From the IMG/VR virus record IMGVR_UViG_3300034220_000043, positions 1 to 54,188 of that record: 54,188 bases of DNA; one strand, 5' to 3'. Each line of letters begins with the position of its first letter. Position 1 is the stretch's first letter. The notes beneath the pieces are model-generated. The model ran no database searches, had not been told where the DNA came from, and saw only the letters and a list, made by a program, of their open reading frames with translations. The DNA comes from a virus. Lineage: Duplodnaviria; Caudoviricetes. The translations under genes were made by a program, and so were the position numbers. Shown one piece after another: positions 128 to 51,142 of this stretch.

Positions 128-178
128 GGACAGCACCTTTAGACGCTCCGTGATGATGGGCTGGTCAGGATGCAGGTC

Positions 179-214: not shown

Positions 215-240
215 TGAGTCCTGCGGTCGGGGCCGTCAGC

Positions 241-22726: not shown

Positions 22727-22938
<212 letters not shown>

Positions 22939-24014: not shown

Positions 24015-25349
24015 TCAGGCCCGGGTCGCGAGCTGCACGAAGGGCGACAGCGTGCCGGCGCCCTTGTTCGGGGTGATCGCGTTCTTGATCCACGGCCGGC
24101 CGTCGACGCGCTCGATGATCCGGTAGGCCGTCGAGTCGACGTTGAACTTGAAGTGCTCGCTGGTCATCGCCGTCATCGACTGCCGGTCACCGATGAGGTA
24201 GTAGCCCAGGTCGACGAAGTTGATGTCGCCCGCGAGGCCGAGGGTCTCGGCCTTCTCGGTGAAGATGACCGGCCGGCCGAGGATGGTCATGGGCGGGCCG
24301 TCGACGCCCGAGCCCAGCCACACCGCGGAGCCGCCGGTGCCGACGCTCAGCGCCATCGTGGCGAGCTCGGGGAAGGTGTCGATGTTGGCGATCCACACCG
24401 CGTTGGCCAGCGCGGACGGCAGCATCCGCGCGTACATCTTGACGATGTTCTCCCAGACGATGGAGCCCGCCGCCTGGCCGGCCTCCTTCGCCACGGCGAC
24501 CCGCGCGGTGTTGCCCGCGTTGAGGAAGCCCAGGGGCTCACCGACGCCCGAGCCGCGCATGAACGCGACGTCCTCGAACCAGGCGAGCGCCTCGGGGAAC
24601 AGCTGGTCGACGAACGCGCTGACGCTGACCGCGGAGTCGGCGAGCAGCTCGTTGGGGATCTCGGCGTAGCCGGTGAGCTTCTGCGCGTCCAGGGTGACCG
24701 ACCCGAACTTCGCCGAGCTGGCGACCAGCGCGGCGGCCTCCTCGGTCCAGTAGCCCACGACGCCGCCGTAGACGCTGGAGGCGTTGGACTGGGCGTCGAT
24801 CATCGGGAACTTGATCCGCGGCGTCGCCATCGGGATGACCCGCGCGCGGGGCCGCACGATCGCGGACTCGAGCGCGACGCGCAGCAGCTCGGCCCGGAAC
24901 TCCTCCGGCACCAGGAAGCCACCCTCGGAGGGGATCGTGGTGCTGTAGTCGTTGCGGATCTGGCCGAGGCGCTCGGCGGCCGGCCGGTCGCCCTTGCGCT
25001 CGTCGAACAGCGCCTTGAGCAGGTCGCCGGTCGACTCGAACTTGCCGTCGAGCTGGGCGCCCGGGGCGTGCCGGTTGTGGTGCTGGCCGCGGTTGCGCGC
25101 GACGGGGGAGTCCGGGCGCAGGTCGGGCCGGTTGGTGACCGGCTGGTCCTTGAGGAACTCGGCGAGGGTGGCCTGCACCTGCTCCTGCACCTGCAGGCCG
25201 AGTGCGGCGTCCTTCTCGGCGACGGCGGTGGCGTAGTTCTTCACGAACTCGCCGAGGTCACCTCCGTCGAAGATCGCCTTGAGCTTGCCGTCGTCGCCGA
25301 GCATCTCCTCGAGCTCGGCGGCGGACGTGGGGATGACCGTGCTCGTCAT
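24015..25349 (-). CDS. Major capsid protein (HK97 fold)
   Basis: SEGGFLVPEEF..NELLADS..GSGVGEPLG..ILGRPV..ERVDG. Confidence 0.95.
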   Translation of the reverse strand: MTSTVIPTSAAELEEMLGDDGKLKAIFDGGDLGEFVKNYATAVAEKDAALGLQVQEQVQATLAEFLKDQPVTNRPDLRPDSPVARNRGQHHNRHAPGAQLDGKFESTGDLLKALFDERKGDRPAAERLGQIRNDYSTTIPSEGGFLVPEEFRAELLRVALESAIVRPRARVIPMATPRIKFPMIDAQSNASSVYGGVVGYWTEEAAALVASSAKFGSVTLDAQKLTGYAEIPNELLADSAVSVSAFVDQLFPEALAWFEDVAFMRGSGVGEPLGFLNAGNTARVAVAKEAGQAAGSIVWENIVKMYARMLPSALANAVWIANIDTFPELATMALSVGTGGSAVWLGSGVDGPPMTILGRPVIFTEKAETLGLAGDINFVDLGYYLIGDRQSMTAMTSEHFKFNVDSTAYRIIERVDGRPWIKNAITPNKGAGTLSPFVQLATRA

Positions 25350-26532: not shown

Positions 26533-26699
26533 TGGCTCTCGCCCTTCTTCACCACGTCGCGGATCCACTTCGGGAGCGCCGCGTACGTGTCGTGGGGTTG
26601 CGCCTCCTCGGCCAGCCGGAACCGGTCGTCCAGGCTCAGGTCGTCGGGGGGCAGCGCGTGCAGGGCGGCCGCGATGCGGTGCGACAGCTCGGGGGTCAT
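26529..26699 (-). CDS. Small protein (56 aa), candidate immunity protein
   Basis: MTPELSHRIAAALH...LPKWIRDVVKKGESQ; ATGA overlap with the portal-fusion stop. Confidence 0.65.
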   Translation of the reverse strand: MTPELSHRIAAALHALPPDDLSLDDRFRLAEEAQPHDTYAALPKWIRDVVKKGESQ

Positions 26700-29578
26700 G
26701 GCGCCTCCACCACGAGCGCGCCGCGGTTGAGCACCACGTAGTAGCGCTCGCTCTCACCGGGGTCAGGGGTCATGACCAGAGCGTCGTAGCCCAGCGCGGC
26801 GGCGAGCCGGCCCGGGTCGCCGAACGCCTTGCCGAAGTCGCCGCTCTGTAGCCGCTCGTCGGCCGCGGCGATCTCGCGCAGGTCGGACAGGCTGATGACC
26901 CGGGCGTCGGGGCGCAGCGCCATCCGCATGACGACCCCGTCCTCGTCCGCGCCGCGCCAGCCCCGGCCGGCGGCGTAGCCCTCGGCGGCGCTCTCGTCGG
27001 TCGTCGTGTAGGTGCCGTTGCCGTAGGTGCCGAGCCCGGTGAACAGGCGGCCGGTGCGGAACTCCCGCGCCCACTGCTCGGCCTGGCTGCCCGCGATGCC
27101 GCGGTAGACCTCGACGTGGTCGTCGCTCAACGCGGCGAACGCGGCGGCGCTGAGCACCGTGGGCAGCGCGTCGAAGTCCTGGCTGCTCAGGATGCGGGCG
27201 AGGATGGCGTCGTGGTCGTCGGGCTGGTCGATGTCGGCGAGAGCGGCGACCTCGTCGGCCCAGTCATCGAGGGTGGTGCGCGGGCCGGGCGGCGAGGCGG
27301 GCCGGGCGGGCGCCGGCGGGGTGGTGGTCTCCGGGCGCCACACCCCGGTCACAGTCCCGCGGCAGCGCTCGCGGCCGTCGCAGTCCACGTAGCCGCCGAT
27401 CGCGGTGTAGAGCTTGTCGTAGGGGCCCAGGTCGTCGGTGGTGCACACGAACCGGCCGTCGATGGCGCGGCACCGCGGGCAGGTGTTGCCGTCGAGGGTC
27501 TCGTCGGCGTAGATGGACCCGCTCGGGCCGCTGGCCATCGTGTCGATGCGCGCCCGGTTCTGGGCGCCGGTGAGCACCCCGCCGAGCTTGGTGTCCTCGC
27601 GTGCGGTGCTCGCCTCGGTCAGCGTGGCCTCGACCTGGCCGGCCACCTCGGCCCCGCCGCCGCCGTTGTAGTTCACCCGCATCGCCTCGGTGCCGGCGGT
27701 GAGCGCCTGCGCGGCGGCCATCAGCGCGGCGAGGGTGGCGGCCACGTCGTCGTCCGGCACGGGCGCGGTGGTGGCGCTGACGCGGCCGGGCAGGGCCAGG
27801 CTGACGCCCTGGGCGGCGGCCTCGCGCTTCACCTGGGCGGCGGCGTCCCCGGCGATGGCGCGCATGGCCTCGACAATGCGGGCCTGCGCGGGCGCGGGAT
27901 CGACGGCCAGGGCGGCGAGGGCGGGCAGGTCGTTGTCGTCGATCGCGGCGGCGATCTGGCGGCGCAGGTCGGCGCGCCAGTCGGCGCGGACGTCGGCCAT
28001 GCGGTCGAGCAGCTGCGCGAGGCGGCGCTCGTAGGCGGCCTGCACGGGCGCCAGGTCGACGTCGGGCGCGCCTTCGGCGCGCAGCGGGGCGCGCGGCACG
28101 TCGTGGTGGACGCAGGCGACGCCGTGCCCGCCCGTGCAGTCCCAGCCCTCGGCGTCGGGGTGCCGGTTGGTGGTGCCCGTGCCCGGCTCTCGCCCGCCCG
28201 TCGAGGGGTCGGAGGCAGGTGGCGTGCCGGGCACGGGCGGCTCGGGGGCTGCCGCGGAGGCGGCCGGGGCCGGCAGCGAGACAGCGGCCCAGTCGATGTT
28301 CGGGTAGAGCACCGGCAGGAGCCGGTCACCGAGGGCGGCCGGCGCCGACTGCAGCAGCTGCAGCAGCTCGGTGCGCTGGGGGTCGCTGGCCTCACCGGAT
28401 CCGAAGCGCATCTCGGGCAGGCCGTAGGCGGCGCGCACGTCGTCGGCGTTGAACCCGGCGCGGATCAGCTCGGCGGCCGCCCGGACGACGGAGTCCCGCT
28501 CGGCGTTGGCGGCCTCCTCGTCGCTCGCCACGGGGCTCTCGTAGTCGAACTCGACGCCCTTGCCAGTGGCCCCGAACATGGGCAGGAGGCGCGTGTTGAG
28601 GGCCTGGCGCCAGCGCTCGAGCCGGGGCACCGTCAGCAGCTTGGCGAACTGGGCGTCGGCGGCCTTGGCGGCGGCGAAGTTGACGCCGTCGGTGACGCCG
28701 AGGGTGGCCCGGCTCATGCCGTAGGCCTCCATCAGCACGTCGCGGGAGACGTTGCGGAGCTCGGCGAACTGCATGTCACGCTGCGTGTACTTGCGGTCGA
28801 CCCACTTCGCGCCGTGCTCGATGACCGCGACCCGGTGGGCGTTGGACACGCCGCGATGCTGCTCGGCCCAGCGCCGTGTGAACTGCTCCCACTCGTCGTC
28901 GTCGAGGTTGTTCTCCAGCTCGATGACGCCGCCCGGCTCGGCGCTGTTGCGGAAGAACGCCGCGTTCCACGCCGCCGCCGCGGTGCTGGCCTCCAGCTCG
29001 ACGAGGATGGCCTGCACCGGCCCCATGCCCCGGTACGGGTCCTCCGGGTTGGGCATCTTGATCTGGATGACCTCGTCGGCGGCGAGGGGGATCTTGTCGC
29101 CGTCGGGGGTCTTGTAGGTCCAGCCCAGCAGGAACTCGGTGGGGTGCTTGACCGGCTCCATGCGGTCGGGCCGGACGGGCCAGAGCTCGACGGGGATGTT
29201 GCCCTTGCGCACGACCACCAGCAGCGTCTCGCCGGCGAGGTCGACGTGCTGCTGCCCGATCTCGATGAGGTCGGCCTGGGTCATGAACGGGTTCGGGTTC
29301 TCCCACAGCGTCAGCGCGGCGTGCACGGTGACGCGCTCACGCTCCGTGTCGGAGGTGGCCTTGCCCGGCTTCGCCTTGCGGTAGAGGCCCCAGTCGGGGG
29401 CGGCCGTCGCCGTCGAGGTGCGGTTGACGATGGCGAACAGGGTGCCGACGCGGCCCATCTGCGCGAGCGGCCCGGACCCGCCGCCCGCGCTGCCGCCGAA
29501 CCCGGTGCCGGAGCGGCGCGGGCTGTACGGGACGGGCGCCTCGGCGCGGGGGCGCAGCACGGGGGACAGGAGGCTCAC
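26696..29578 (-). CDS. Portal protein fused to a MuF-like domain and a C-terminal ART-like domain (960 aa)
   Basis: HK97 portal motifs (PNPFMT, LWPVRPDRM, FFRNSAEPGG); D.NTCPRC..CDGRERCRG; C-terminal YRG..YGNGTYTT..YA..GYD..YVVLNR. Confidence 0.85.
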   Translation of the reverse strand: MSLLSPVLRPRAEAPVPYSPRRSGTGFGGSAGGGSGPLAQMGRVGTLFAIVNRTSTATAAPDWGLYRKAKPGKATSDTERERVTVHAALTLWENPNPFMTQADLIEIGQQHVDLAGETLLVVVRKGNIPVELWPVRPDRMEPVKHPTEFLLGWTYKTPDGDKIPLAADEVIQIKMPNPEDPYRGMGPVQAILVELEASTAAAAWNAAFFRNSAEPGGVIELENNLDDDEWEQFTRRWAEQHRGVSNAHRVAVIEHGAKWVDRKYTQRDMQFAELRNVSRDVLMEAYGMSRATLGVTDGVNFAAAKAADAQFAKLLTVPRLERWRQALNTRLLPMFGATGKGVEFDYESPVASDEEAANAERDSVVRAAAELIRAGFNADDVRAAYGLPEMRFGSGEASDPQRTELLQLLQSAPAALGDRLLPVLYPNIDWAAVSLPAPAASAAAPEPPVPGTPPASDPSTGGREPGTGTTNRHPDAEGWDCTGGHGVACVHHDVPRAPLRAEGAPDVDLAPVQAAYERRLAQLLDRMADVRADWRADLRRQIAAAIDDNDLPALAALAVDPAPAQARIVEAMRAIAGDAAAQVKREAAAQGVSLALPGRVSATTAPVPDDDVAATLAALMAAAQALTAGTEAMRVNYNGGGGAEVAGQVEATLTEASTAREDTKLGGVLTGAQNRARIDTMASGPSGSIYADETLDGNTCPRCRAIDGRFVCTTDDLGPYDKLYTAIGGYVDCDGRERCRGTVTGVWRPETTTPPAPARPASPPGPRTTLDDWADEVAALADIDQPDDHDAILARILSSQDFDALPTVLSAAAFAALSDDHVEVYRGIAGSQAEQWAREFRTGRLFTGLGTYGNGTYTTTDESAAEGYAAGRGWRGADEDGVVMRMALRPDARVISLSDLREIAAADERLQSGDFGKAFGDPGRLAAALGYDALVMTPDPGESERYYVVLNRGALVVEAP

Positions 29579-29990: not shown

Positions 29991-30319
29991 GAGGTCACCC
30001 CCCGCGGCGAGGTGGGGTGCGTCAGCTCGGCGGGCGCGGTCTGGTGGGCGACGAACGCCACGCCGTCGACGTCGGGCTCGCACCACCCGTCACGCAGCGT
30101 CGTGCTGGGGATCCAGCGGGCGGGGAGGAGGCCGCAGCTGGCGGTGATCGGGTGCCGGTCCTGGTGCGGCTGTGTGTCCCACCAGGCCGCGTGCTCGGTG
30201 CAGCTCATGGTCACGCTGTCCACCGCCCACACGTGCACGGTGGCGGGCGCGCCGCAGTAGCGGACGGCGGTGCCAAAGAGGCAGCGCTGCACCACGGCCA
30301 GCTCGTTCGCGACGCTCAT
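29987..30319 (-). CDS. Hypothetical Cys-rich protein
   Basis: ATGA coupling to terL. Confidence 0.55.
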   Translation of the reverse strand: MSVANELAVVQRCLFGTAVRYCGAPATVHVWAVDSVTMSCTEHAAWWDTQPHQDRHPITASCGLLPARWIPSTTLRDGWCEPDVDGVAFVAHQTAPAELTHPTSPRGVTS

Positions 30320-31917
30320 CCGAGCCACCGCATCCGCGGCCGGGCGTCCCGGTCCAGCCCGCAGGCGTGCACCATCGCGTCGACCCGGTCGGGGCTGTCC
30401 TGGCCGGGCTGCCAAGTGGAGGCCTGGTGCTCGAGCTGGGGGTGCCGGCCGACCATGACGGCGCGGCCGGTCTCGAACAGGGGCGCGGCCCACTGCATCC
30501 GCGTCTCCTTCGACCCCTTCGCCGTGATGGTCCGCAGCCGGGGGCCGCTGGTGCCGATGCCGACGATGGCCTGGGCGTCGGCGGGGGTGAGCTCGGCGAG
30601 CTGGGCGGTGATGAGGGCCCGGCGCTCGGCGGGGTCGTCCGGGCGGCTGAGCCGGTCCAGGGCGCCCGCCGGGCCGCGGCCGTGCACCAGGGCGAGGGCC
30701 TGCTGGTGCAGCTCGGCCCAGGCCTCCCGGATGCGGGCCGGCAGCTGCGACAGCGACTGCTCGTAGGCCAGCGTGGGGGCGTCGCGGCGCACGCAGACGA
30801 GCAGCGCGGTGCGCGCCCAGCGAGCCACGGTCATCGGGGCGGACAGGTCGTCGAGGATGAACACCCGGCCGTCGGGGTGCTGGGCGGCGACGATGATGCC
30901 CGCCTCGTCCCCGGAGCCCTCGTTGTCGGCGGGGTCGACGACCACGACGGGGGGCAGGCAGCCGGCCGGGGCGGCGTCGAGGCGCCAGGTGTCGAACCAG
31001 GCGCCTCGGAACACGCCGCCCTCGACGGGGGCGGGCTGGCCCTGGTACAGCGCGGCGAAGGTGCGCTCGCCGACGGCGGCCCGCTTGCCTTCCCAGTCGG
31101 CGACGGTGCGACCTCGGGCGGAGACCAGCCACTCGCCGGGCCGGCGGCCGAGCGCGTCGGGCTCGATGCCCTTCTCGGCGTTCGGGGCCATGGCCAGGGC
31201 GGGGATATTGAGCACCGGCCAGCCCTCGGCGATGCGGCGGCCGGCGAGGTCGTCCTCGTGCCAGCGGGTCTGGACGACGATGACGGGTGCGCCGGGGGCG
31301 AGGCGGGTCAGCGCGACCGAGCTCCACCAGTCGTGCAGGTTCTCCCGCACGGTGGTCGAGTCGGCGTCCTGCTGGTTGCGGATCGGGTCGTCGATGATCA
31401 GCAGGTCAGCGGGCCGGCCGGTCAGCGCGCCGCCGACGCCGGTGGTGACCATGCCGCCGCTGTGCTCGGCGAGCTCCCAGTCCGACGCGTCGGCGTGGCC
31501 GCGGTCGAGCGCCAGGCCGTACGGGGCGCCGTGGGTGAGCACGAGGGACCGCACGACCCGGCCGGAGGTGCGGGCCAGGGAGGCGGCGTAGGACGCGTAC
31601 ACGACCCGGCGGTCGGGGTCCTCGGCGAGCAGCCACAGCCCGAGCCAGCGCAGCAGGGTGGTCTTCATCTCCTGCGGCGGGACCGAGACGACAAGGCGCC
31701 CGTCACGCTGCGCGACCGTCTCGCGGAGGCGGGCGGCGACGAGGTCGACGGCCTGCGTGCGGACGAACGTCGGGTCGAACCGGGCGGCCAGGTGGGCCGG
31801 GGTCGGGCACTGCTCGATCAGCCGGCTGCGCGCCTGGGCCAGCTCGTCACGCTGGCGGGCGCCGGCGTCGTGGCCGTCGAGGAGGTCGGCGGCACGCTCG
31901 AGGAAGGCGATGCTCAC
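30316..31917 (-). CDS. terL: Terminase large subunit
   Basis: PPQEMKT Walker A, GGALTGRPADLLIIDDP, QTRWHEDDL, LYQGQP, VDPA, SPDRVDA. Confidence 0.93.
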   Translation of the reverse strand: MSIAFLERAADLLDGHDAGARQRDELAQARSRLIEQCPTPAHLAARFDPTFVRTQAVDLVAARLRETVAQRDGRLVVSVPPQEMKTTLLRWLGLWLLAEDPDRRVVYASYAASLARTSGRVVRSLVLTHGAPYGLALDRGHADASDWELAEHSGGMVTTGVGGALTGRPADLLIIDDPIRNQQDADSTTVRENLHDWWSSVALTRLAPGAPVIVVQTRWHEDDLAGRRIAEGWPVLNIPALAMAPNAEKGIEPDALGRRPGEWLVSARGRTVADWEGKRAAVGERTFAALYQGQPAPVEGGVFRGAWFDTWRLDAAPAGCLPPVVVVDPADNEGSGDEAGIIVAAQHPDGRVFILDDLSAPMTVARWARTALLVCVRRDAPTLAYEQSLSQLPARIREAWAELHQQALALVHGRGPAGALDRLSRPDDPAERRALITAQLAELTPADAQAIVGIGTSGPRLRTITAKGSKETRMQWAAPLFETGRAVMVGRHPQLEHQASTWQPGQDSPDRVDAMVHACGLDRDARPRMRWLG

Positions 31918-32564
31918 GACGCCACCACCCGTAGGTGCCGGGCCACGACGCCGCGCGTCTCGGCGGCGACCTCGGCCGGGATCGGCACCTGGGAGGCGAG
32001 GTGCGCGAGGCCGGCGTCGACGGCCTTGACGACCGCGGCGGCCTGCAGCTCGCTGATGCGGGCCATGCGCTCGTCGATGCCGAGCTTGGCGATCAGGCCC
32101 AGCACCGACGCGCAGCGGTCGAGCGCCCGCTCGAACAGCGCCACCTCGGCGCGCAGCTGCTCGGTGCCGGCGCCGTGGGCCTCGTAGCGCAGCGGCGCGT
32201 CGGCCTCGGCGGGCCCGCACTCGGGGCAGGTGCCGGTGGTCAGCTCGTTGACCTTGACCGCGAGGGCGTCCTTCCACGCGACGACCTGGCCGGCCAGCTT
32301 GGCCAGCTCGCCGAGGGGGTCGTCGATGGGCGCGACGTCGAGGCGGGCGAGGCCGCGGCGCACCTGGGCCTCGGCCTCGCGGCGGGCGGCAGCAGCGCGC
32401 ACCTGGGGGGCGGCGCCGCCGTGGCTGCGGCAGACGGTCGCCCCGCGCACCGGCCACTGCTTGCACGGGCCGCGGGGGGTCGTGCCGGTGCAGCGGCTCC
32501 GGGTCGGGGCCGATGGGTCCGCGGCCGGGGCGAGGGCCGATGGGTCGAGGCGGAGGCCGGTCAC
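31914..32564 (-). CDS. Terminase small subunit-like protein (HGG zinc-binding domain)
   Basis: RC..C..GATVCRSHGG; directly upstream of terL. Confidence 0.7.
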   Translation of the reverse strand: MTGLRLDPSALAPAADPSAPTRSRCTGTTPRGPCKQWPVRGATVCRSHGGAAPQVRAAAARREAEAQVRRGLARLDVAPIDDPLGELAKLAGQVVAWKDALAVKVNELTTGTCPECGPAEADAPLRYEAHGAGTEQLRAEVALFERALDRCASVLGLIAKLGIDERMARISELQAAAVVKAVDAGLAHLASQVPIPAEVAAETRGVVARHLRVVAS

Positions 32565-32752
32565 CGGGACCGCCGCCGGGTCGCGCGGTTCGGCGCGGTG
32601 AGCGCGAGCGGCGGGTGCAGCTCGGGGACCAGCAGGCGGCCGAGCGCCTCGCGGTCGCGGCGTCGGGCGGTGCCGGCGTCGTTCATGGCGTGGAACAGGC
32701 GATCCCACTTGCGCGTGCCCCACTGCACCTCGAGGTCGGCCAGCTCGCTCAC
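32561..32752 (-). CDS. Hypothetical protein (63 aa)
   Basis: GTGA coupling. Confidence 0.55.
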   Translation of the reverse strand: MSELADLEVQWGTRKWDRLFHAMNDAGTARRRDREALGRLLVPELHPPLALTAPNRATRRRSR

Positions 32753-33024
32753 AGGCGGGCCTCGGGCACCGGCGGCAACGCGCCGGCCGGAGCGGCGGGC
32801 GGGACGAGGGAGGGCGGCGTGACGGCCGCAGGCGCCGGAGCGAGCAGCAGGGCGGCGGTGACCCCCGCGGCGGCGAGCAGGCCGCCCAACGCGATCAGGG
32901 CCGCGGAACGCCGAACGCCAGCCGGGCCGCTGCCGTGACCAGACAGCGACCCGCCGGCGTTCGCCTTGCCCGCGGTCCCGCGCGGTGAGGCAGTGGTGAT
33001 CCTATCCGCCACCGCACCCACCAC
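32749..33024 (-). CDS. Possible small membrane protein
   Basis: Hydrophobic segment; start uncertain. Confidence 0.35.
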   Translation of the reverse strand: MVGAVADRITTASPRGTAGKANAGGSLSGHGSGPAGVRRSAALIALGGLLAAAGVTAALLLAPAPAAVTPPSLVPPAAPAGALPPVPEARL

Positions 33025-33116
33025 CTCTCATCGTACTGCGTGTACGCAGGTGTTGCTTGCGCGCAGTGATCGGGCGCAGGGTAGCGGATCGATCACCGCA
33101 CGGGAAGCCGACGGGG

Positions 33117-36100
33117 TCACACCGAGTCCTGCCACGCGTACGAGGGCTCGCTCGGGTCGGCCACGATCGACACCCCGAGCAGCTCGGTCTCCATGCACCG
33201 CACCAGCTCGGCGGTCGCCTCAGCGGCGTCCTCGGCGGGCACGAACACGTCGAGCTCGTCGTGCACGGGCAGCAGCGTGCAGGTTCCCCAGCGGGTGTCG
33301 CGCCAGCGCACGAGGGTGTCGACGAGCAGCTCGCGGGCGGTGCCCTGGATGCAGTAGTTGGGCCCCTTGTGCGGGTACTCGCGCGGCAGGTGGATCACCC
33401 GGCCCGAGTAGCTCGGGTACTGGGTGGCGCCGCGCTTCACGGCCTCGCGGATGGACGCCGACCACGCGGCCAGGCCGGGGGTCAGCCCGTCGAGGGTGTC
33501 GATGACGGCCTGCATGACGTCGTGGCCGACGCCGACCTGGGTGGCGAGGGTGGAGATCCCGCCGCCGTAGATCCGGCCGAACACGCCCCGCTTGGCGATG
33601 TACCGGTTGGCCTTGGTCGCGCCCTCGCCCCAGACCTGGCGGGCGATCTCGCCGTGCAGGTCGCGGCCCTCGGCGAGGAACGCCAGGAGCGTCGGGTCCT
33701 GGCTCAGCGCGGCGGCCACGCGCAACTCGACCCCGGAGAAGTCGGCGCCGATCATGAGCTGGCCGGGGTCGGCGGTGATGCAGGCCCGGACCCCGCCCTC
33801 GCGGGAGAGCTGCTGCAGGTTGGGTCGCACGCAGCTCATGCGGCCGGTGTCGGTGCCGAGGGTGTAGACCGTCGGGCGGGCGCGGCCGTCGCCCCGCTCG
33901 CACAGCAGCCGGTAGGGCTCGAGGAACAGCCCGAGGGCGGTGTCGTGGTGGCGGTGGTCGAGCACGGCGCCGACCAGCTCCCCGAGCGGGCCCTCAGCGC
34001 CCCGCAGCGGCTCGAGGACGCCGGCGGCGACACTCGGGCGCCCGGTGGCCGTGCGCGGCAGCGGCGCGCCGAGCTGGAGGGCGACCTCGGCCACCTGCTG
34101 GTCCGAGCCGGGGTTCTCCACGCCCAGCGCGCGGACCCGCGCGGCGGCGGCGTCGCGGCCGGCGGTGTGGCGCTCGGTCATCTCGCGGACGTGCTCGGCG
34201 TCGATCCGCACGCCGCGGTGCGCGACCCGCGCGGTCATGCGCTGGGCGAGGCGCTCGCGCTCGTAGACCGCGGCGTCGGGCCGGGGCAGCGCGCGGGCGA
34301 GCGCGGCGGTGTCGAGCACGTCGGAGGCGGCGTAGCGCAGCATCGTGGTCGAGCCGGTCGCCACCTGCGCCCAGCCGGAGCGCTCGGGCGGGGTGTCGAC
34401 CTTCGTCGAGGTGAGCCAGCGCCCGGCCTTCCACAGCGCGGCCCGAGCGGCGTCGGCGGCCGGCGCCGTGGAGGCCGCCCCGAGCACCGCCCCGGCGAGC
34501 GCCTTGAGCCCGGGATCCGAGCCGGTGGACTGCGGGTCGGCGAGCTTGGCCGGGATCACGGTGTCGTGCATCCGGTCCCAGCCGCTCTCGGCGTCGATGA
34601 GCCCGGCGTGGGCCAGCGGCACCAGGTCGGCGGTCGCGGAGTGGGCGTGCAGCACCGGCGCGGCGGCGAGCAGCTCGCGCACCAGGCTGGCGTGGTCGAC
34701 CGGGTGCAGCACCGCGGCGGCGATCTCGTCGCCGAGCTGCACCGAGCGCAGCTCGTAGTCGGCGTGGCCGACCGGGTAGCCGGAGGTCTCCACGTCGACG
34801 GTCAGCGCGCCGGAGCGGGCGAGCGCGGCGCGCACCACCTCGCCGGCCTGGGCCGGGGTGACGGGCAGCGTGTTGCCGGCGCGGTCGACCACGGCGGGCA
34901 GGCCGAGCACCTCGCCCTGCGCGGTGGCGATGGCGTCGAGCCGCTTCTCCTCGGCCAGCTGGCGCCGGGCCTCGGCCTTGCTGATCTTCGCCTCGGTGGC
35001 CCGGGCGGCGGCCTCGGTCCTGCTCACGGAGCGTGGCGTAATCGCCTTCTCCGGCGCCGGGGTCGGCGGTGTGGACGGTCGCGGAGGCGGATTCGTACCC
35101 CCCACACCGTCCACCGCGCCCGCTACCTGGGGGTTCTCGCCTTCTTCGCCTCGGGTGTGGAGGGTCGGAGGGTTGGCCCCTACCGCCCTTCTATGAGTGG
35201 TGTTTTTCCACTGTTCTTCTTCTCCATCTACTGTATGACGAGACCTACCCTCCACACCCTCCACAGGAGATACAAAAACAGGGGGTGACATGGTGTTATC
35301 GGTTGTGGAGGGTACTGCGATAGACCCCCCACCAACCCCCCACAGACCCTCCACACGAGGCGCGAACGGCGAGGCCGAGCCGCCGGGAACGGCCGAGGGC
35401 GCGCCGGGGGCGGGCGCCGAGGCGGCGGGCGGCGGGGTCGGTGTGGAGGGTTGCGGGAAGCCCGGGTCGGCCCGCACCACTAACGGTCTGTAGTTGGCGT
35501 CGCGGCGCCTGAGCACGCCGAAGCCGAGCTCGTTGAGCGCCCGGCCCCAGGCCGTCTCGGTGAGGATCGAGGAGTCCCGGATGCCGGCGTCGCGGCACCA
35601 GCCCCGGAACCCGACGTAGAGCTGGTGCGACCTGGTGCCGTGCTCGTCGGGCTGGACCGACTCGGTGAGCCACTGCCCGAGCACGTCCTGGGAGCCGACG
35701 AGCTCGTCCATGACGAACTGGACGGCGAGCGGCGCGGCCGAGGTGAGGGCGCTGTCGGGGTTGGCCAGCCAGCCGGCGGCCTCGCGCATCAGCAGGGCGA
35801 GCACCCCGGGCGCCTCGGCGGCCCAGCGCGCGCCGCTGAGCGCCTGCCTGCGGGCCCGGACCTCGGCCGGGTCGCCGTTGCACGGCAGCAGCCGGATCCG
35901 GCGGCGCACGGCCGCGTCGGACACCGAGGGCGGGGTGTTGGAGGTGAGCACCAGGGTGTGGGTGGGCCGGAAGGTGATGGGGTTCTGGTTCATGGCGTTG
36001 CCGGTGAGCTCGCCGCCGCCGGTGAGCTGCTTGAGCCGCTCGGTGTTGCGGGTGCCCTCGCGCATGGCCTCGTCGATGAACGACAGCCGCCGGCCCTTGA

Positions 36101-38015
36101 GCGCGAAGACGATGCTGGCGTGGCCCTCGCCGCTGCCGAGGAGGCGGTGGTCGGCGGCGTGGGCGTAGGACCCGAGCACCTCCATGATCAGCGTGATGAG
36201 CGAGGTCTTCCCGGTGCCGCCCTCGCCGAACAGGATGGGCAGCGCGGCGTCGGCGTAGCCGGTGGTGGCGATGGACAGCACGCGCAGCGCCCAGGCGCGG
36301 ACCTCGGGGTCGGGCCACACCGCGGCGAGGAAGGCGTCCCACAGCGGCGTCGGGACGGGCGCGGGGCCCACGCCGGCGGCGACGAGGTGCGGGCCGTGCG
36401 GGTCGAGGTGCGTGGCGATGGTGGGCACCTCGGCGCTGGCGCGCAGGTCCCACGGCCAGCCGCCGGCCCACAGCACGTCGGGCTCGCGGTCGAGGTCGGC
36501 GATGCGGACGGTGGCGGGGTGGCGGCCGCCGTCGGTGTGTCGGCGCATCGTGGCGGCGACCGCGGCCGCGGGCCCGCTGGTCATCATCCGCAGGCGGCGC
36601 TTGTAGGCGCGCTGCGCCGGGCTGGCGGGCTCGCCCTTGGCCACGGGGGTGGGGTCGCCGTCGGGCATCAGGGCGGCGCACTCCGACACCACCCGCCCGG
36701 CGAGGTCGCCCTCCATCGACCACTGCTCGGCGCCGCGCAGCAGCCACGCGCTCTTGGTGTCGCTGGCGCGGCGGGCCATGTAGAAGCAGCGGCGCAGCAT
36801 CGCGTCGGCGAGCGGGTGGTCGAGGTCGACGCCGGGGTCGAACGCCTCGGTGCCCACGACCTGGGCCCAGGACGGGTCGACGAGCTTGGGCGGCAGCTGC
36901 AGGTGCAGCGGCTCGAAGGGCTCGGGGTCGTCCTCGCCGGCGCGGCGGTCGTCGACCGGGCGGGGGCGGGCGTCGACGGTGACCCCGGTCAGCCCGGCCC
37001 ACCCGGGGCCGCCGGGCAGGGTGCAGGGGTCGGCGAGGTGCTGGACGCCGCCGAGGACGGTGACGGCCTTGCGGGCGCTGGAGAGCAGCATGCGCTCGAA
37101 CTCGGCGTCGCGGGCCTCCCCGGCGGTGACCGCGGCCCACTGGTCGCGCAGGGCGGGCAGCGCGGCGCCGAGGCCGGCGTGGCCCATGGCCGCGGACTGG
37201 ACGAGGCGGTGCGTGCGGGCGGTCATGGCGTCGTGGCGGGCGCCGACGTCGGGGTCGGCCAGCGCGCGGGCGGTGGCGTCCAGGGCGTCGTACATGACCG
37301 AGCAGGCGGGCCGGTCGTCGGCGCTCAGGGCGGCGAGCAGCGCCTCCCCGCTGGCGTGGCTGGCCGAGGCGGGGGCGGCGTCGGTGGCGCCCTCGCGCAG
37401 CCCGTCGACCCAGGCCGGGGGCAGCTCGGGCAGCTCGCCGGGGGTGGGGAGCCGGGTGGCGGGGGCGCCGTCGGGGGCGTACCAGGTGTAGGCGGTGCCG
37501 ACGTCGCCGTGCGGGGAGGGCCAGACCACGGCGTAGCGGTGGTGGCGCTGGATGATCTCGATGTCGGGGCGCAGCACGGTGGCGTAGCGCCCGGCCGGCA
37601 CGCGGTAGAACCGGATGCGGCTGGGGCCCTGCCCGCGGGCGGTGGAGCTCCACGTGGGCGGCAGCAGCCCCCAGCGCGCTTCGGCGGCGGCGAGGGTCTG
37701 GCCGCCGACCTTCACCTTGCCGCTGGGGGTGGTGTAGTCGTCGACGTCGATGCCGACGATCCCGTCGGGCAGCCGCAGCGCGATGGAGTGCCCGGCGTAG
37801 CCGTTGCCGGCCCAGGCGGCGAGCAGCTCGGCCGAGGTGTCCTGGCCTTCCTCGCCGGTGTAGCCGGTGGGCGGCGGGCTCTTGGTCTCGGCGGGCACGG
37901 GCAGCACGGCGGGCCAGCCGGCGTGGTGGTAGAGCGCGGCCGCGGAGGCGAAGACGGGGGGCGCGGTGGTGGTCACGGGCGGCCGCCGAGCGGGCAGGGG
38001 GACTTCATCGTTCAC
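33117..38015 (-). CDS. Multidomain replicase: PrimPol primase + D5/P4-type SF3 helicase + 3'-5' exonuclease + family A DNA polymerase (~1630 aa)
   Basis: GIDVDDY; GEGGTGKTS, SFIDE, LKQLTGG; VDVETSG, YAASDV; TGRMS, PNLQQ, ADFSGVELRV, RYIAKRGVFGRIYG, VHDEL; no internal stop. Confidence 0.9.
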   Translation of the reverse strand: MNDEVPLPARRPPVTTTAPPVFASAAALYHHAGWPAVLPVPAETKSPPPTGYTGEEGQDTSAELLAAWAGNGYAGHSIALRLPDGIVGIDVDDYTTPSGKVKVGGQTLAAAEARWGLLPPTWSSTARGQGPSRIRFYRVPAGRYATVLRPDIEIIQRHHRYAVVWPSPHGDVGTAYTWYAPDGAPATRLPTPGELPELPPAWVDGLREGATDAAPASASHASGEALLAALSADDRPACSVMYDALDATARALADPDVGARHDAMTARTHRLVQSAAMGHAGLGAALPALRDQWAAVTAGEARDAEFERMLLSSARKAVTVLGGVQHLADPCTLPGGPGWAGLTGVTVDARPRPVDDRRAGEDDPEPFEPLHLQLPPKLVDPSWAQVVGTEAFDPGVDLDHPLADAMLRRCFYMARRASDTKSAWLLRGAEQWSMEGDLAGRVVSECAALMPDGDPTPVAKGEPASPAQRAYKRRLRMMTSGPAAAVAATMRRHTDGGRHPATVRIADLDREPDVLWAGGWPWDLRASAEVPTIATHLDPHGPHLVAAGVGPAPVPTPLWDAFLAAVWPDPEVRAWALRVLSIATTGYADAALPILFGEGGTGKTSLITLIMEVLGSYAHAADHRLLGSGEGHASIVFALKGRRLSFIDEAMREGTRNTERLKQLTGGGELTGNAMNQNPITFRPTHTLVLTSNTPPSVSDAAVRRRIRLLPCNGDPAEVRARRQALSGARWAAEAPGVLALLMREAAGWLANPDSALTSAAPLAVQFVMDELVGSQDVLGQWLTESVQPDEHGTRSHQLYVGFRGWCRDAGIRDSSILTETAWGRALNELGFGVLRRRDANYRPLVVRADPGFPQPSTPTPPPAASAPAPGAPSAVPGGSASPFAPRVEGLWGVGGGSIAVPSTTDNTMSPPVFVSPVEGVEGRSRHTVDGEEEQWKNTTHRRAVGANPPTLHTRGEEGENPQVAGAVDGVGGTNPPPRPSTPPTPAPEKAITPRSVSRTEAAARATEAKISKAEARRQLAEEKRLDAIATAQGEVLGLPAVVDRAGNTLPVTPAQAGEVVRAALARSGALTVDVETSGYPVGHADYELRSVQLGDEIAAAVLHPVDHASLVRELLAAAPVLHAHSATADLVPLAHAGLIDAESGWDRMHDTVIPAKLADPQSTGSDPGLKALAGAVLGAASTAPAADAARAALWKAGRWLTSTKVDTPPERSGWAQVATGSTTMLRYAASDVLDTAALARALPRPDAAVYERERLAQRMTARVAHRGVRIDAEHVREMTERHTAGRDAAAARVRALGVENPGSDQQVAEVALQLGAPLPRTATGRPSVAAGVLEPLRGAEGPLGELVGAVLDHRHHDTALGLFLEPYRLLCERGDGRARPTVYTLGTDTGRMSCVRPNLQQLSREGGVRACITADPGQLMIGADFSGVELRVAAALSQDPTLLAFLAEGRDLHGEIARQVWGEGATKANRYIAKRGVFGRIYGGGISTLATQVGVGHDVMQAVIDTLDGLTPGLAAWSASIREAVKRGATQYPSYSGRVIHLPREYPHKGPNYCIQGTARELLVDTLVRWRDTRWGTCTLLPVHDELDVFVPAEDAAEATAELVRCMETELLGVSIVADPSEPSYAWQDSV
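35071..35451. repeat. Iteron-like GTGGAGGGT/ACCCTCCAC cluster around an AT-rich core; putative replication origin
   Basis: Exact copies at 35157, 35247, 35256, 35305, 35346 and 35443; 1-mismatch copies at 35071 and 35106; AT-rich ~35190-35300. Confidence 0.75.
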
Positions 38016-39856
38016 GCACCTGTCGGGGAGCAGGGTTCGGTCAGAGCGGGGCCGGCCTGGTCGGGGAGGTTCAGGCCGAGCCGGTGGGCGATGAGGGGCA
38101 GGTAGGTGGGGTCGCGCTCGATGCCGAAGGCCCAGAAGCCCTCGTCGCGGGCGGCCTGCAGGGTGGTGCCGGAGCCGGCGAACGGGTCGAGTACCACCCC
38201 GCCGGGCGGGGTGACCAGCCGGACGAGCCACCGCATGAGCGCGAGCGGCTTCACGGTGGGGTGCGCGACACCGTCGACCTTCGGGCGTTCGGAGGTGGGG
38301 GCCTTCGCGCAGTAGAAGAACCGCGACGCCCCGCCGGAGTCCGCGCCCCGGGCGGGGACGCACTCGGTCTGCCCGGCGAACGCGCCGTACGCGTCGCGGA
38401 ACTTGTCGCTGCCGCGGCGGGTGGGGTTGGCTCCGCTGGTGAGCGCGCCGGTCTGCGCGTCGAGCTCGGCGGCTGCGTCCTCGTCCAGCACCACGTTCGC
38501 CGGCCACCGGCCCTGCTGAACATGGCCTGCCGTACACTTAGGGCATGCCGTGGATCGATCAGCAGGGGTACGTCCGGATGATCCATCAGGGTCGGGAGAC
38601 GCGAAAGCATCGAGTCGTCGCGGAGCAGATGCTCGGGCGCCCTCTCCTGTCGACGGAGCACGTTCACCATCGGAACGGGACGAAGTCGGACAACCGTCCG
38701 GAGAACCTGGAGATCGTGGATAACCGGTCTCACCTGCGCGAGCACTGGCAGGAAGGGCACTACGACCCGCGGGTGAAGCGTCAGACGAAGCCGGAAGCGA
38801 CGTGCTCAGGCTGCGGTCACTTCGGCCGTCTGCGGGCGAAGGGCATGTGCAGCTCGTGTTACTTCCAGGACTACTACCAGCGGCACCCGGAGAAGTGGGC
38901 GGCGTACCAGGCTCGACGCCGACGCGCGTAGCGTCGATGTTCAGCGCGCCCGTCCCGTGCGCCAGCACCGTCGCCGCCACCGTCCCGCCGCACGGCTTGC
39001 GCGCGACGACGATCGGCTCGTGGCCCGGCTTGAGCGCGGTTCCCCAGCCCTGCCAGCGGACAGCGTCCGGCGTCGATTCGCCGACCCGTTCAAGCCTGTT
39101 TTTCGTGGCGTTCCAACCGTCCCGTCCGTCAGCGCGCATGAATCCGACCCCCTCAGCGGGTCGGGTGGCGAACTCGACGCCCGGGGTGCCCTTGCGCCCG
39201 TTGAGGCGCCACACCTCGACGTCGAGCTCCGGGCCTACGCCTAGAAACTCCCGCAGCCAAGGCCACTTATCCAACGGGGGAACTTGCGAGTTTCGGTCAG
39301 GACTGAACCAATATTGAGACACATTGGCAGTGCCAAAGTGTTCGTCGATTTCACGGCGGCTGCGCCCAGACTGGGCGAGGGCGGCGCGAAGGGCTCGGCA
39401 GACAGTCGCCCTAGGATCGACGTCCTCGGTCCGCAGCTTGTCGATCGCCTTGCCCACATCGAGCGACTTCGGGAAGCCGGAGCCGTACAGCCAGGAGATC
39501 GAGTCGCGGATCTCGAACCCGGCCAGCCGCACCGACAGGCCCATGAGGTCGACGGTGCGGGACCCGGCGAACGCGAGCAGGTGCCCGCCTGGCTTGAGCA
39601 CCCGCAGACACTCGTCCCACACCGCCGGCGGCGGCACGAACCCGTCCCACGCCGCCGACATGAACCCGCGCCCGTCCGGGACGTGCTCCCGGTTGCCGGA
39701 GCACCAGGCGGTGACGGCCTGCGCGATGGCGGCCGGGCGGTGCTCGGCGAGGCCGTAGGGCGGGTCGCACACGATGGCGTCGAACTGCTCGTCGGCGAAG
39801 GTCCGCAGCACGTCGAGGCAGTCGCCGTCGAGCAGCACGGGCAGCGGCGCGGTCAT
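38012..39856 (-). CDS. N6-adenine/N4-cytosine DNA methyltransferase with two internal insertions
   Basis: DPPY, GSGFPKS, WGTALKP, GRWPANV, HPTVKP, DPFAGSGTT. Confidence 0.88.
   Translation of the reverse strand: MTAPLPVLLDGDCLDVLRTFADEQFDAIVCDPPYGLAEHRPAAIAQAVTAWCSGNREHVPDGRGFMSAAWDGFVPPPAVWDECLRVLKPGGHLLAFAGSRTVDLMGLSVRLAGFEIRDSISWLYGSGFPKSLDVGKAIDKLRTEDVDPRATVCRALRAALAQSGRSRREIDEHFGTANVSQYWFSPDRNSQVPPLDKWPWLREFLGVGPELDVEVWRLNGRKGTPGVEFATRPAEGVGFMRADGRDGWNATKNRLERVGESTPDAVRWQGWGTALKPGHEPIVVARKPCGGTVAATVLAHGTGALNIDATRVGVEPGTPPTSPGAAGSSPGSNTSCTCPSPADGRSDRSLSTSLPASSDASPAGRSALPASARAGETGYPRSPGSPDGCPTSSRSDGERAPSTGEGARASAPRRLDAFASPDPDGSSGRTPADRSTACPKCTAGHVQQGRWPANVVLDEDAAAELDAQTGALTSGANPTRRGSDKFRDAYGAFAGQTECVPARGADSGGASRFFYCAKAPTSERPKVDGVAHPTVKPLALMRWLVRLVTPPGGVVLDPFAGSGTTLQAARDEGFWAFGIERDPTYLPLIAHRLGLNLPDQAGPALTEPCSPTGA
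38545..38931 (+). CDS. HNH endonuclease nested antisense inside the methyltransferase
   Basis: GYVR..HRVVAEQMLGRPL..EHVHHRNG.KSDNRPENL..H; C-terminal CxxC..CxxC. Confidence 0.88.
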   Translation: MPWIDQQGYVRMIHQGRETRKHRVVAEQMLGRPLLSTEHVHHRNGTKSDNRPENLEIVDNRSHLREHWQEGHYDPRVKRQTKPEATCSGCGHFGRLRAKGMCSSCYFQDYYQRHPEKWAAYQARRRRA

Positions 39857-40320
39857 CGCGTACCGGCCCGGCGGCTCAGCGGGTCGGGGAGCCCGCAGTC
39901 GGAGGCGGCCGCGAACAGGCTGTGACGCCCGGCGTCGGCGGCGTGCGGCATGCCCTTGACGAGCAGCCCGGCCGCGATGAGGCGGCGGTCGGTCGCCCAC
40001 GGCTTCACCTCGGACGCGGACCGCAGCACGACGCGCATGCCCCGGTCGCCGGCCCAGGCCTGCAGCGCGCCGATGAGGTCGCGGGCGGTGCGGCCGCCGG
40101 CGGGGGTGGAGGAGCGCCCGGCGCGGGGCCCGACGACGAACGCCTCGACGGCCAGCAGCACCTCGGCGGGGTCCTGGGCGCCGAGCAGCATCTCGACGGT
40201 GTCGAGCACCAGCTCGGGGGTGACCTGCGCCAGGGCCGCGGGGCGCCAGGCGTCGAGGTCGATGCGGGCCAGGCCGGTGGTCGAGCCCGGGTCGACGCCG
40301 ATCACGGTGCGGATCTTCAT
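39853..40320 (-). CDS. RuvC-like Holliday junction resolvase
   Basis: VIGVDPGSTTG..VE.F..VK..HAADA. Confidence 0.75.
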   Translation of the reverse strand: MKIRTVIGVDPGSTTGLARIDLDAWRPAALAQVTPELVLDTVEMLLGAQDPAEVLLAVEAFVVGPRAGRSSTPAGGRTARDLIGALQAWAGDRGMRVVLRSASEVKPWATDRRLIAAGLLVKGMPHAADAGRHSLFAAASDCGLPDPLSRRAGTR

Positions 40321-50659: not shown

Positions 50660-51142
50660 GTGATCAGCGACGACGCGGTCTGCCTCCTCGACATGCTCCA
50701 GGAGATCCTGGAACGTGACGGCGAGCTGCACCTGCGGCACGTCGACCTCCCTCCCGGCAGGCTCGGCCTCGCCCACTTCCGACAGCGGCTGGTGACCCTC
50801 GCCCGCGGCTTGGACCGCGGCGAGTGGCGCGGCACCCTCGGCCACGAGCTGATGCACCTCAAGCGCGGCCCGGTCGCGAGAGAACACGCCGAGGCGGAGG
50901 AGGAGGAGGTCCAGCGCGAGACCGCCGCGATGCTGGTACCCCCGGGCCCGGCGCTGGCCCAGCTCGGCAGGGAGTGGAGCGACGGGGAGATCCAGGAGTT
51001 CGCGTCGCGGTTCGTCGTGGACCGCGACACCATCGAGACCGCACTCGACCAGGCCGGGGTTCCCGAGACGCCGGCGCGGGGCAGCGTCCCGGTCCCGCGG
51101 CTGCCGGTGTTCATCGAGCTGGGCTCGGCGTCGCGACGCTAG
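50660..51142 (+). CDS. ImmA/IrrE-family metallopeptidase (copy 2)
   Basis: RGTLGHELMH..RG..EE..AA.LV; lies between the repressor and the integrase. Confidence 0.82.
   Translation: MISDDAVCLLDMLQEILERDGELHLRHVDLPPGRLGLAHFRQRLVTLARGLDRGEWRGTLGHELMHLKRGPVAREHAEAEEEEVQRETAAMLVPPGPALAQLGREWSDGEIQEFASRFVVDRDTIETALDQAGVPETPARGSVPVPRLPVFIELGSASRR

Follow-up and report, generated by a model that had tools for sequence, protein, structure and literature searches.

The window analysed here is the entire 54,188-nucleotide (54-kb) stretch of virus record IMGVR_UViG_3300034220_000043, and its GC content is 0.74. The same record encodes serine integrase, terminase, portal and capsid genes, and the source element is a temperate siphovirus-like prophage of a high-GC soil actinobacterium. 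On the minus strand, one frame runs without interruption from position 38537 to a stop codon at 33117–33119. Its first 174 codons are rich in arginine and proline and overlap the upstream methyltransferase gene, which makes them implausible as protein. The coding sequence could begin further in, at either of two GTG codons. The GTG at 38015, which overlaps the methyltransferase stop as GTGA, gives 1632 aa; the GTG at 37976 gives 1619 aa, matches an existing database gene call (P0003, 100% identical) and is where the N-termini of homologues align in an alignment of 36 proteins. Residue numbers below follow the longer form. The features of the locus are as follows.

33117–38015, minus strand: replicase ORF, GTG start at 38015, 1632 aa, stop codon 33117–33119
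37446–37934, minus strand: Prim-Pol (archaeo-eukaryotic type) primase-polymerase, residues 28–190 (Pfam PF09250, 65.2 against 22.8 bits)
35580–36353, minus strand: P4/D5-type superfamily 3 (SF3) helicase region, residues 555–812 (NCBIfam TIGR01613, P4-family primase C-terminal region, 115.4 against 108.7 bits)
~36204–36230, minus strand: Walker A
36069–36074, minus strand: Walker B
35469–35729, minus strand: winged-helix-like domain, C-terminal in the helicase module, residues 763–849 (AlphaFold2)
35031–35462, minus strand: linker predicted to be disordered, residues 852–995 (AlphaFold2 pLDDT 26–39, no secondary structure)
35070–35450, no strand assigned: iteron array and candidate origin, six exact CCCTCCACA copies plus one-mismatch copies
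35189–35248, no strand assigned: AT-richest 60 nt, candidate DNA-unwinding element (GC 0.42 against 0.74 for the window)
34920–35021, minus strand: conserved helical segment before the exonuclease, residues 999–1032 (AlphaFold2 helices at model residues 460–493, pLDDT ~90)
34287–34841, minus strand: 3'-5' exonuclease, residues 1059–1243 (Pfam PF01612, DNA_pol_A_exo1, 25.8 against 23.6 bits)
33183–34154, minus strand: family A DNA polymerase (PolA), residues 1288–1611 (Pfam PF00476, DNA_pol_A, 148.6 against 34.3 bits)

The predicted polypeptide leads from Prim-Pol through a P4/D5-type SF3 helicase with its winged helix and a disordered linker to a 3'-5' exonuclease and PolA, so that four catalytic centres are predicted in one chain. 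An uninterrupted frame of ~1630 aa with this domain order had been proposed by a sequence-only reading of the same DNA, and both points are confirmed. Pfam scores for the 1632-aa protein are quoted against the gathering threshold. Besides the matches listed above, DUF5906 (SF3 helicase core) was found at residues 595–705 (43.5 against 27.6 bits). The residues expected at the active centres are invariant in 36/36 aligned proteins: D90/D92 and H159 of the primase, G602/K603 (Walker A) and D648/E649 (Walker B) of the helicase, D1074/E1076, D1130 and Y1228/D1232 of the exonuclease, and D1425, R1471/K1475/Y1483 and H1585/D1586/E1587 of PolA; we assign these residues to the named motifs of the respective families.

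An AlphaFold2 model covering residues 540–1062 adds a winged-helix-like domain. Residues 763–849 (model residues 224–310) are modelled as helix-helix-strand-helix-helix-strand with pLDDT 83–93, consistent with a winged helix, and by analogy with the winged helix of the SaPI Rep protein (PMC9371898) this would be the candidate origin-binding domain. The helicase core itself is poorly modelled (pLDDT <50 at model residues 82–148), and the helical segment in front of the exonuclease is conserved among aligned homologues. Foldseek searches with the model returned AsfvPrimPol (8ww8_B, E 1.4e-5) and the SaPI5 primase-helicase (7ola_A, E 1.5e-3), along with MPXV E5 and vaccinia D5. Elsewhere at the locus, Rfam gave no family on positions 32500–40000 (the sole match, F6, has an E value of 0.32 and lies under its gathering score), no tRNA genes were detected in the window, and no RNA runs containing the replicase sequence were listed.

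The two halves of the replicase are joined by a predicted disordered linker of ~145 aa, whose DNA is not ordinary coding sequence. GC falls to 0.63–0.68 at ~34950–35400, against 0.74 for the window, as the sequence-only reading had noticed, and GC at third codon positions (GC3) drops from ~0.95 to 0.38–0.68, a change confined to codons ~871–995. In all 17 loci compared, the GC3 minimum lies within the linker and the gene frame of the linker contains no stop codon, while each of the other two forward frames has 2–9 (4 and 3 in the window). After shuffling, the chance of an open linker frame was 0–0.12 per locus. These counts bear out the earlier suggestion that selection for the fusion has kept the linker open.

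A fusion created by an assembly or frameshift error, or by two genes lying in frame by chance across an intergenic spacer, would have some footing in the metagenomic derivation of the window and in the scarcity of stop codons in high-GC DNA. We nevertheless regard it as exceedingly improbable. The read-level check of the linker that had been proposed earlier came out clean: positions 34700–35800 are covered, with 0 differences and 0 gaps at a depth of ~37, by an independent re-assembly, a 29,753-nt Logan contig of run X1 (the run from which the window probably derives), and linker pieces in short contigs from two independent runs (X2 and X3) match with 0 differences. The closure of the other reading frames across the 17 loci speaks against chance, and the genomes of cultured Micromonospora, Labedaea and Nocardioides strains also encode fused homologues, with prophage carriers in Labedaea rhizosphaerae DSM 45361, Nocardioides marinquilinus JCM 18459 and Micromonospora sp. 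MW-13.

The replicase fusion is real and recurrent as judged from homologous sequences. The domain-architecture search that had been suggested yielded at least 120 database clusters of fused homologues. The 120 listed have 50–74% identity, are all 1507–1969 aa long and all have PolA; 113 of them also have a precomputed Prim-Pol and/or DUF5906 match. When the N-terminal module (residues 1–850) was used as query, 47 of the nearest 150 representatives of 50%-identity clusters were at least 1400 aa long, and every one of these fused-size proteins ends in PolA, which is of the window's type in 41 and of a second type in 6. At the DNA level, a contig scan with an alignment-based profile recovered 47 loci; a scan with the single protein gave 34 pattern matches, none of which is a relative. 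Two loci (L013 and L019) are still fused and have the same N-terminal module and an iteron linker, yet their PolA is another one, 47% identical to that of Pas55 from Actinoplanes phage phiAsp2 and ~27–32% identical to the window's, indicating from sequence comparison that the fused architecture there has survived a swap of the polymerase module. The segment comprising helicase, winged helix and linker matched 0/400 other genomes of the class at E 1e-40, a figure to be read as a floor.

A stop or frameshift in the linker of close homologues, the observation expected if the fusion were spurious, is absent from 17/17 loci but has a counterpart in P0160, a protein of 896 aa on a 35-kb contig that terminates within the linker. 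A search for the DNA of this split form returned only another fused relative, L060, whose frame, like those of the 17 fused loci, reads through the array. P0147, P0153 and P0161 are stand-alone PolA genes, each with its own ATG; P0147 adjoins a TrwC relaxase gene and has no iterons nearby. A minority of relatives may therefore be split, and the fusion would then not be indispensable.

These relatives bear on the question of whether the working proteins are separate even though the fused frame is real, either through cleavage in the linker (as reported for PREX), through an internal start for PolA, or because the initiator, once bound to the iterons, stops transcription and leaves the primase-helicase half as the main product. 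Apart from the apparently split relatives, such a reading could draw on the predicted disorder of the linker, which would make it accessible to proteases, on the possibility that a protein-bound array within a gene acts as a roadblock, and on the isolated actinophages, which keep the two genes apart: coverage of ≥80% of the query at a single place was seen in 0/4065 matching records. However, an open frame would be needless if only the halves mattered, and it stands open against chance in 17/17 loci; an in-frame start with a Shine-Dalgarno-like site ahead of the exonuclease is absent in 11/16 loci, the window included; and the fusion was retained when PolA was exchanged. On balance we think separate working proteins unlikely; the full-length chain is a putative product, and its activities are predicted.

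The low GC of the linker is attributable to a conserved iteron array carried by its DNA, and not merely to a loose protein tether. The array begins ~20 nt past the last winged-helix codon. Exact CCCTCCACA copies lie at 35156(-), 35248(+), 35257(+), 35304(-), 35347(+) and 35442(-), and one-mismatch copies of the 9-mer at 35070(-), 35098(+) and 35336(+); counted by its 8-mer core, the array has 11 copies, 6 exact and 5 with one mismatch. All six exact copies in the 54-kb window fall within 295 bp of the linker, on both strands, against an expectation of 0.6, and six were reached in 0/100 shuffles. The AT-richest 60 nt, which contain a small hairpin at 35195–35216, are flanked by the tandem iteron pair and by the inverted copy nearest to it. 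The tandem pair on one side of this AT core and the oppositely oriented copy at 35156 on the other make up an inverted repeat of 16 nt with 94% complementarity.

The layout is common to the 15–16 relatives examined, in which the repeat sequences themselves differ. In 17/17 loci a linker 9-mer is repeated 5–11 times on both strands and is absent elsewhere in the 8–11 kb locus, and in 16/16 relative loci the linker is the top repeat window (5–11 copies against a background maximum of 2–4). The spacing shared among them comprises three copies in direct orientation at intervals of 11 or 21 nt, a single inverted copy, a tandem pair with 9-nt spacing and then a gap of ~80–90 nt, and the iteron core varies by locus between TCCAC, TGCAC, GTCAC, GTCAG and GACAC. 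In unfused relatives with 35–42% identity (L029, L027, L044, L045, L048 and L032), equivalent arrays start 8–22 nt past the stop codon of the primase-helicase gene. No iterons were seen in phiAsp2 Pas55, or where the primase-helicase gene meets the PolA gene in the distant split actinophages Shayna, Attoomi and SuMoo. The wing of the winged helix covaries imperfectly with the iteron class, relatedness is a confounder, and L008 and L016 are exceptions, and no alignment column in the whole protein cleanly separates the iteron classes.

In the protein alignment the repeats surface as linker peptides of the form V-x-G and P-x-T, visible in an otherwise hypervariable linker, which raises the possibility that V-E-G and P-S-T are short protein motifs (docking sites, for example) and the DNA repeats their shadow. 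We consider this very improbable, as the copies are identical over 9–12 nt, third codon positions included, on both strands, and the peptides covary as reverse complements, the pairs VEG/PST, VQG/PCT and VTG/PVT changing together. The arrays of the unfused relatives, moreover, lie in non-coding DNA.

Taken together, these features suggest that the iteron array in the linker is probably a replication origin. In SaPI elements, 6–12 iterons lie directly downstream of rep, with an AT-rich centre and opposite orientations on either side, and Rep binds them through its C-terminal winged helix (PMC9371898). The window has 11 short repeats directly 3' of the winged-helix coding sequence and an AT-rich centre flanked by iterons in opposite orientation; it departs from the SaPI plan in that the array lies inside the reading frame of the replicase. 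SaPI Rep and PriRep5 resemble the replicase further in joining a primase to a self-loading SF3 helicase with a winged helix, which in the replicase is a predicted one, and in having iterons after the coding sequence (PMC9371898; bioRxiv 10.64898/2026.10.17.759575). As described there, however, the SaPI origin is outside the ORF and no polymerase is attached, whereas the window's frame continues through the array into exonuclease and PolA.

The array might instead be a binding site of another kind, such as an operator through which the replicase autoregulates, a site for packaging or partition, or one recognised by a different phage protein. The case for an origin is one of sequence architecture, and the AT-rich core is weak in several relatives (GC 0.50–0.60 for the AT-richest 60 nt in 11/16 loci), which leaves room for such a site; a transcribed and translated origin also raises conflicts between replication and gene expression, which we count against the origin reading. 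Nonetheless, in fused and unfused relatives alike the array always comes directly after the winged helix of a helicase of initiator type, and it agrees in its features with the SaPI origin as published. An element that integrates via a serine integrase would not be expected to have a partition site, the terminase gene is >3 kb from the array, and no sigma-70-like promoter was found in 32600–38700. A non-origin site is accordingly a doubtful alternative in our estimation, less probable than separate working proteins.

Our best explanation, which we hold to be likely, is that of a replicase fusion whose linker-encoded iteron array serves as the phage origin. The winged helix would bind the iterons immediately 3' of its own coding sequence, and the SF3 module, in the manner of SaPI Rep proteins at their own origins, would assemble and melt the AT-rich core. 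Prim-Pol would then make primers, to be extended by the tethered proofreading PolA. We postulate that the ancestral order was a primase-helicase gene, the origin and a polymerase gene, and that the frame came to extend across the origin once the stop codon had been lost; it would have been maintained from then on, with all iteron copies changing sequence together as phage lineages diverged. More tentatively, and with less than even confidence, the locus could be a self-contained replicon cassette, one transcription unit holding an origin and all the enzymatic activities to fire and copy it, in which the position of the origin inside the ORF is functional and not incidental. Transcription and translation through the array might then tie the making of the replicase to firing of the origin and to cis action, an initiator bound to its own linker DNA might feed back on expression of the polymerase half, and iterons and winged helix might co-diverge into incompatibility-like classes (TCCAC, TGCAC, GTCAC and GTCAG).

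The origin of phage lambda lies in the inter-domain linker of the O protein. Lambda O is like the replicase in that an origin of iterons and AT-rich DNA is contained in the coding sequence of its own initiator, but it has no enzymatic domains, recruits the host DnaB through P and is unrelated as a protein (PMC3349717). Fusions of helicase, primase and polymerase have already been named in phages, namely gp55 of phage 1706 and Pas55 of phiAsp2 (PMC4889955), and the kind of protein described here, with primase, replicative helicase and DNA polymerase in one phage ORF, is therefore not new. Gp55 of Lactococcus phage 1706, the ‘four-in-one replicase’, for which de novo DNA synthesis has been shown and the coexistence of four activities called unprecedented (PMC12205980), likewise unites an SF3-type helicase, an AEP primase, a 3'-5' exonuclease and a DNA polymerase in one phage polypeptide. 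It differs, according to the portion of that report available to us, in its family B polymerase and in the order of its domains, the helicase preceding the primase; the same portion does not report an embedded origin.

Pas55 is an actinophage protein of 1415 aa with primase, SF3 helicase and PolA in one polypeptide; Kazlauskas et al. 2016 (PMC4889955) cite it as joining an SF3 helicase, a primase of DnaG type and PolA. It has DUF3854 instead of Prim-Pol, however, its alignment with the window protein is confined to PolA (31–32% identity), and its linker is acidic and lacks an iteron array or a strong GC3 dip. An AEP–PolA fusion described in 2023 (PMC10201439) shares the N-terminal AEP and the family A polymerase, but belongs to another PolA cluster and other phyla, and the sections of the paper at hand do not mention a helicase; they list the actinophage ‘D29-like’ PolA cluster without known partners. 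Apicoplast PREX (PDB 5dku, 7sxl) also combines primase, helicase, exonuclease and PolA in one polypeptide, with a TOPRIM primase and a Twinkle/DnaB-type (SF4) helicase (PMC10201439), neither of which was found in the replicase: Pfam gave no TOPRIM or DnaB-type domain in the 1632 aa. The parallel with PREX drawn by the sequence-only reading stands only as an analogy between different primase and helicase families; in matches to PDB entries the PolA part is nearer to Taq (E ~1e-27) and Klenow (E ~1e-22) than to the PREX polymerase (~1e-15). A literature search covering few subscription journals and no supplements returned neither an AEP–SF3–PolA fusion nor an origin in a replicase linker in actinophages; the supplements of PMC4889955 and PMC10201439 may list family members.

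If active, the replicase would be a family A counterpart of the PolB ‘four-in-one’ replicase, and a proofreading, helicase-coupled and self-priming enzyme from high-GC hosts that could be useful for minimal replication systems and isothermal amplification. An origin in the linker would offer a concrete route to gene fusion, by read-through of a cis-acting site. The linker would then be DNA under two constraints at once, in which seemingly conserved peptides are the shadow of protein-binding DNA repeats. For a widespread and unstudied group of actinobacterial prophages, including those in culture-collection strains, the arrays provide testable predictions of where replication may begin.

The minus-strand frame encoding the replicase is uninterrupted from 38537 to 33117, its first 174 codons being R/P-rich and overlapping the methyltransferase gene. 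GTG at 38015, the start adopted in the sequence-only reading and in our numbering, shares the tetranucleotide GTGA with the methyltransferase stop and yields a product of 1632 aa; GTG at 37976 gives the 1619-aa product of the database gene call and is where the N-termini of homologues start. Pfam matches above gathering scores were obtained for Prim-Pol (residues 28–190), DUF5906 (595–705), a 3'-5' exonuclease (1059–1243) and DNA_pol_A (1288–1611), with TIGR01613 (P4-family primase C-terminal region) above cutoff over residues 555–812, and the protein falls into two PHROGs families, 'DNA primase' and 'DNA polymerase'. Across an alignment of 36 full-length homologues, no variation occurs in Walker A/B, in the acidic and histidine residues of the primase, in the acidic residues of the exonuclease or in the motif residues of PolA. 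An AlphaFold2 model of residues 540–1062 (16-sequence alignment, mean pLDDT 62) resolved a confident winged-helix-type domain at 763–849, a structureless linker at 852–995 (pLDDT 26–39) and, after it, a confident helical pair at 999–1032. Foldseek neighbours of the helicase part are AsfvPrimPol, poxvirus D5/E5 and the SaPI5 primase-helicase, and PolA is the only part of the replicase with matches in a PDB sequence search. Profiles, model and alignment together confirm one uninterrupted frame with primase, helicase, winged-helix-type domain, exonuclease and PolA.

The 54,188-bp IMG/VR record (74% GC, estimated 94% complete) carries its minus-strand genes in a long run with 4-bp overlaps, as seen in a GC3-based gene call, and comes from a temperate tailed phage whose host, as inferred from relatives, is a high-GC actinobacterium. 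Profile searches placed the following genes:

24015–25349, major capsid protein
26696–29578, portal
30316–31917, large terminase
51139–52494, large serine recombinase
upstream of the replicase ORF, N6/N4 methyltransferase, C5 methyltransferase, SNF2 helicase and exonuclease

The N6/N4 methyltransferase ORF (38012–40000, minus strand) probably starts near 39856, and its frame is open throughout. Codon bias of the coding type is missing in two places: residues ~196–240 (GC3 0.5–0.67) and the S/P/G-rich residues ~355–485 (~38560–38950; GC2 0.8, above GC3 at 0.35). The latter segment splits the Pfam match in two and could represent inserted DNA, an overlapping gene or one more stretch with a dual use. 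Directly 3' of the replicase stop lie 364 nt without a confident gene call (32753–33116, GC 0.69–0.72), with a small plus-strand hairpin at 33036–33049 and no tRNA or Rfam match. At the record's left end, a second, weak helicase-core match (169–453, minus strand; 35% identity to residues 778–876, one TAG inside) and a nearby FtsK/SpoIIIE-family gene (3993–6170, plus strand) may together be left over from another integrative element beside the prophage.

The fused architecture recurs in a collection of 5.8 billion proteins, where all 120 homologues among the matches listed (at least 120; 1507–1969 aa, 50–74% identity) have PolA and, by our own count, 113 of them also have Prim-Pol and/or DUF5906. 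Named sources include Micromonospora, Prauserella, Nocardioides, Labedaea, Jatrophihabitans and one Mycobacterium MAG. When residues 1–850 alone were used in a full HMMER scan, 47 of the nearest 150 representatives (at 50% identity) were at least 1400 aa long, and in all 47 the PolA module is C-terminal. Across the window and 16 relatives with DNA, the low-GC3 part of the linker holds no gene-frame stop in any of the 17 loci, whereas the other two forward frames hold 2–9 stops each; the probability of an open frame after shuffling is 0–0.12 per locus. This supports the proposal that the open linker reflects selection for the fusion. At assembly level, a contig re-assembled from the probable source run had no differences from the window across the linker, and short contigs from two other runs matched pieces of it exactly. 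With the re-assembly free of differences and the linker open in 17/17 loci, an artefactual fusion can in practice be excluded.

The fusion is not universal. In isolated actinophages the primase/helicase and Pol I genes are separate and adjoining (sometimes with an HNH gene between them), and none of 4065 matching phage records reached at least 80% query coverage in one place. A search among shorter proteins recovered close relatives with PolA alone or the primase-helicase alone, many of which come from short contigs. Where contigs are long, one protein (P0160) terminates within the linker and three PolA genes (P0147, P0153, P0161) each have their own ATG. P0147 adjoins a TrwC relaxase, and these split relatives thus point to mobile modules. 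At L058:3-6890, a stand-alone exonuclease-PolA gene (63% identity to the window's PolA half) lies directly 3' of the gene for a TrwC relaxase/helicase at least 1389 aa long, which places the module in conjugative elements as well. Two Nocardioides loci (L013, L019) keep the N-terminal module and linker fused to a different PolA, 47% identical to that of phiAsp2 Pas55. An Actinophytocola locus (L020) has a +1 frameshift at 6329–6339 (residue 1140), in the exonuclease domain and outside the linker, with its nine-copy iteron array intact; this reflects either decay of a prophage gene or an error in sequencing. Two fused homologues, P0037 (1818 aa) and P0097 (1835 aa), have an additional HNH endonuclease domain (PF13392). 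In a Nocardioides MAG, one 101,680-bp contig carries the fused-replicase locus twice (L012, L014) at a distance of 46,948 bp; the two copies agree in ORF length and GC3, suggesting a two-unit concatemer or tandem prophage of ~47 kb.

GC3 is 0.9–1.0 over the whole replicase gene except at codons ~871–995 (0.38–0.68). Here CCCTCCACA occurs six times, all within 35156–35450 and three per strand; these are its only occurrences in the 54-kb window, against 0.6 expected, and six were reached in 0/100 shuffles. Including one-mismatch copies, the array comprises 11 copies over 35070–35450. The AT-richest 60 nt (35189–35248, GC 0.42) have a tandem pair on one side and an inverted copy on the other, the two forming a 16-nt inverted repeat. 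The sole 500-nt window above the linker in 9-mer repetition contains the hexanucleotide GGCTCG repeated in tandem, perfectly, over 8.8 units at 22778–22830 in the structural-gene region.

In every relative GC3 is lowest at codon 816–916, and the linker contains a 9-mer, present in 5–11 copies spread over both strands, that is absent from the rest of the locus. Among windows ranked by repetition, the linker comes first in 16/16 relative loci and also in L060. The core of the repeat varies from phage to phage. A common spacing is kept: three direct copies spaced by 11 or 21 nt, next one inverted copy and a tandem pair with 9-nt spacing, and lastly a gap of ~80–90 nt. In the protein alignment the array casts a shadow of V-x-G-V-x-G and P-x-T peptides, set in a linker that is hypervariable elsewhere, and the V-x-G and P-x-T peptides covary as reverse complements. 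Iteron class tends to be mirrored in the wing of the winged helix ('RRD.xYR' with TCCAC, 'HT..GKRR' with GTCA[CG]), a pattern with exceptions and confounded by relatedness. In unfused relatives (35–42% identity), comparable arrays start 8–22 nt past the primase-helicase stop codon.

SaPI origins have the same architecture (PMC9371898) and are bound by the C-terminal winged helix of Rep; likewise, in the replicase family the array follows immediately after the winged-helix coding sequence, or after the stop codon in unfused relatives. The lambda origin lies within its initiator's own gene (PMC3349717). We therefore propose the array as the phage origin, and judge from sequence that the linker DNA probably serves this role. 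We postulate that the winged helix encoded just upstream would bind the iteron array, the SF3 module would melt the AT-rich core, and Prim-Pol would make primers for elongation by the tethered, proofreading PolA. The fusion itself may date from read-through across an origin formerly located between two genes.

Helicase-primase-polymerase fusions are known as a kind. Kazlauskas et al. 2016 (PMC4889955) cite two: gp55 of phage 1706 (SF3 + AEP + PolB), later characterised as a 'four-in-one replicase' (PMC12205980), and Pas55 of phiAsp2 (SF3 + DnaG-type primase + PolA). Pas55 shares the PolA part alone with the window protein (31–32% identity), has DUF3854 in place of Prim-Pol and has no iteron linker. 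Czernecki et al. 2023 (PMC10201439) describe AEP-PolA fusions in other phyla and an actinophage D29-like PolA cluster without partners. The parallel drawn with PREX holds as an analogy and not as more. A literature search of incomplete coverage turned up no account of the Prim-Pol, SF3 and exonuclease/PolA combination, nor of an origin within such a replicase linker. The window protein thus belongs to a real, conserved family of one-gene replicases, of a kind already published, to which our analysis adds that the linker DNA of the replicase is probably the origin.
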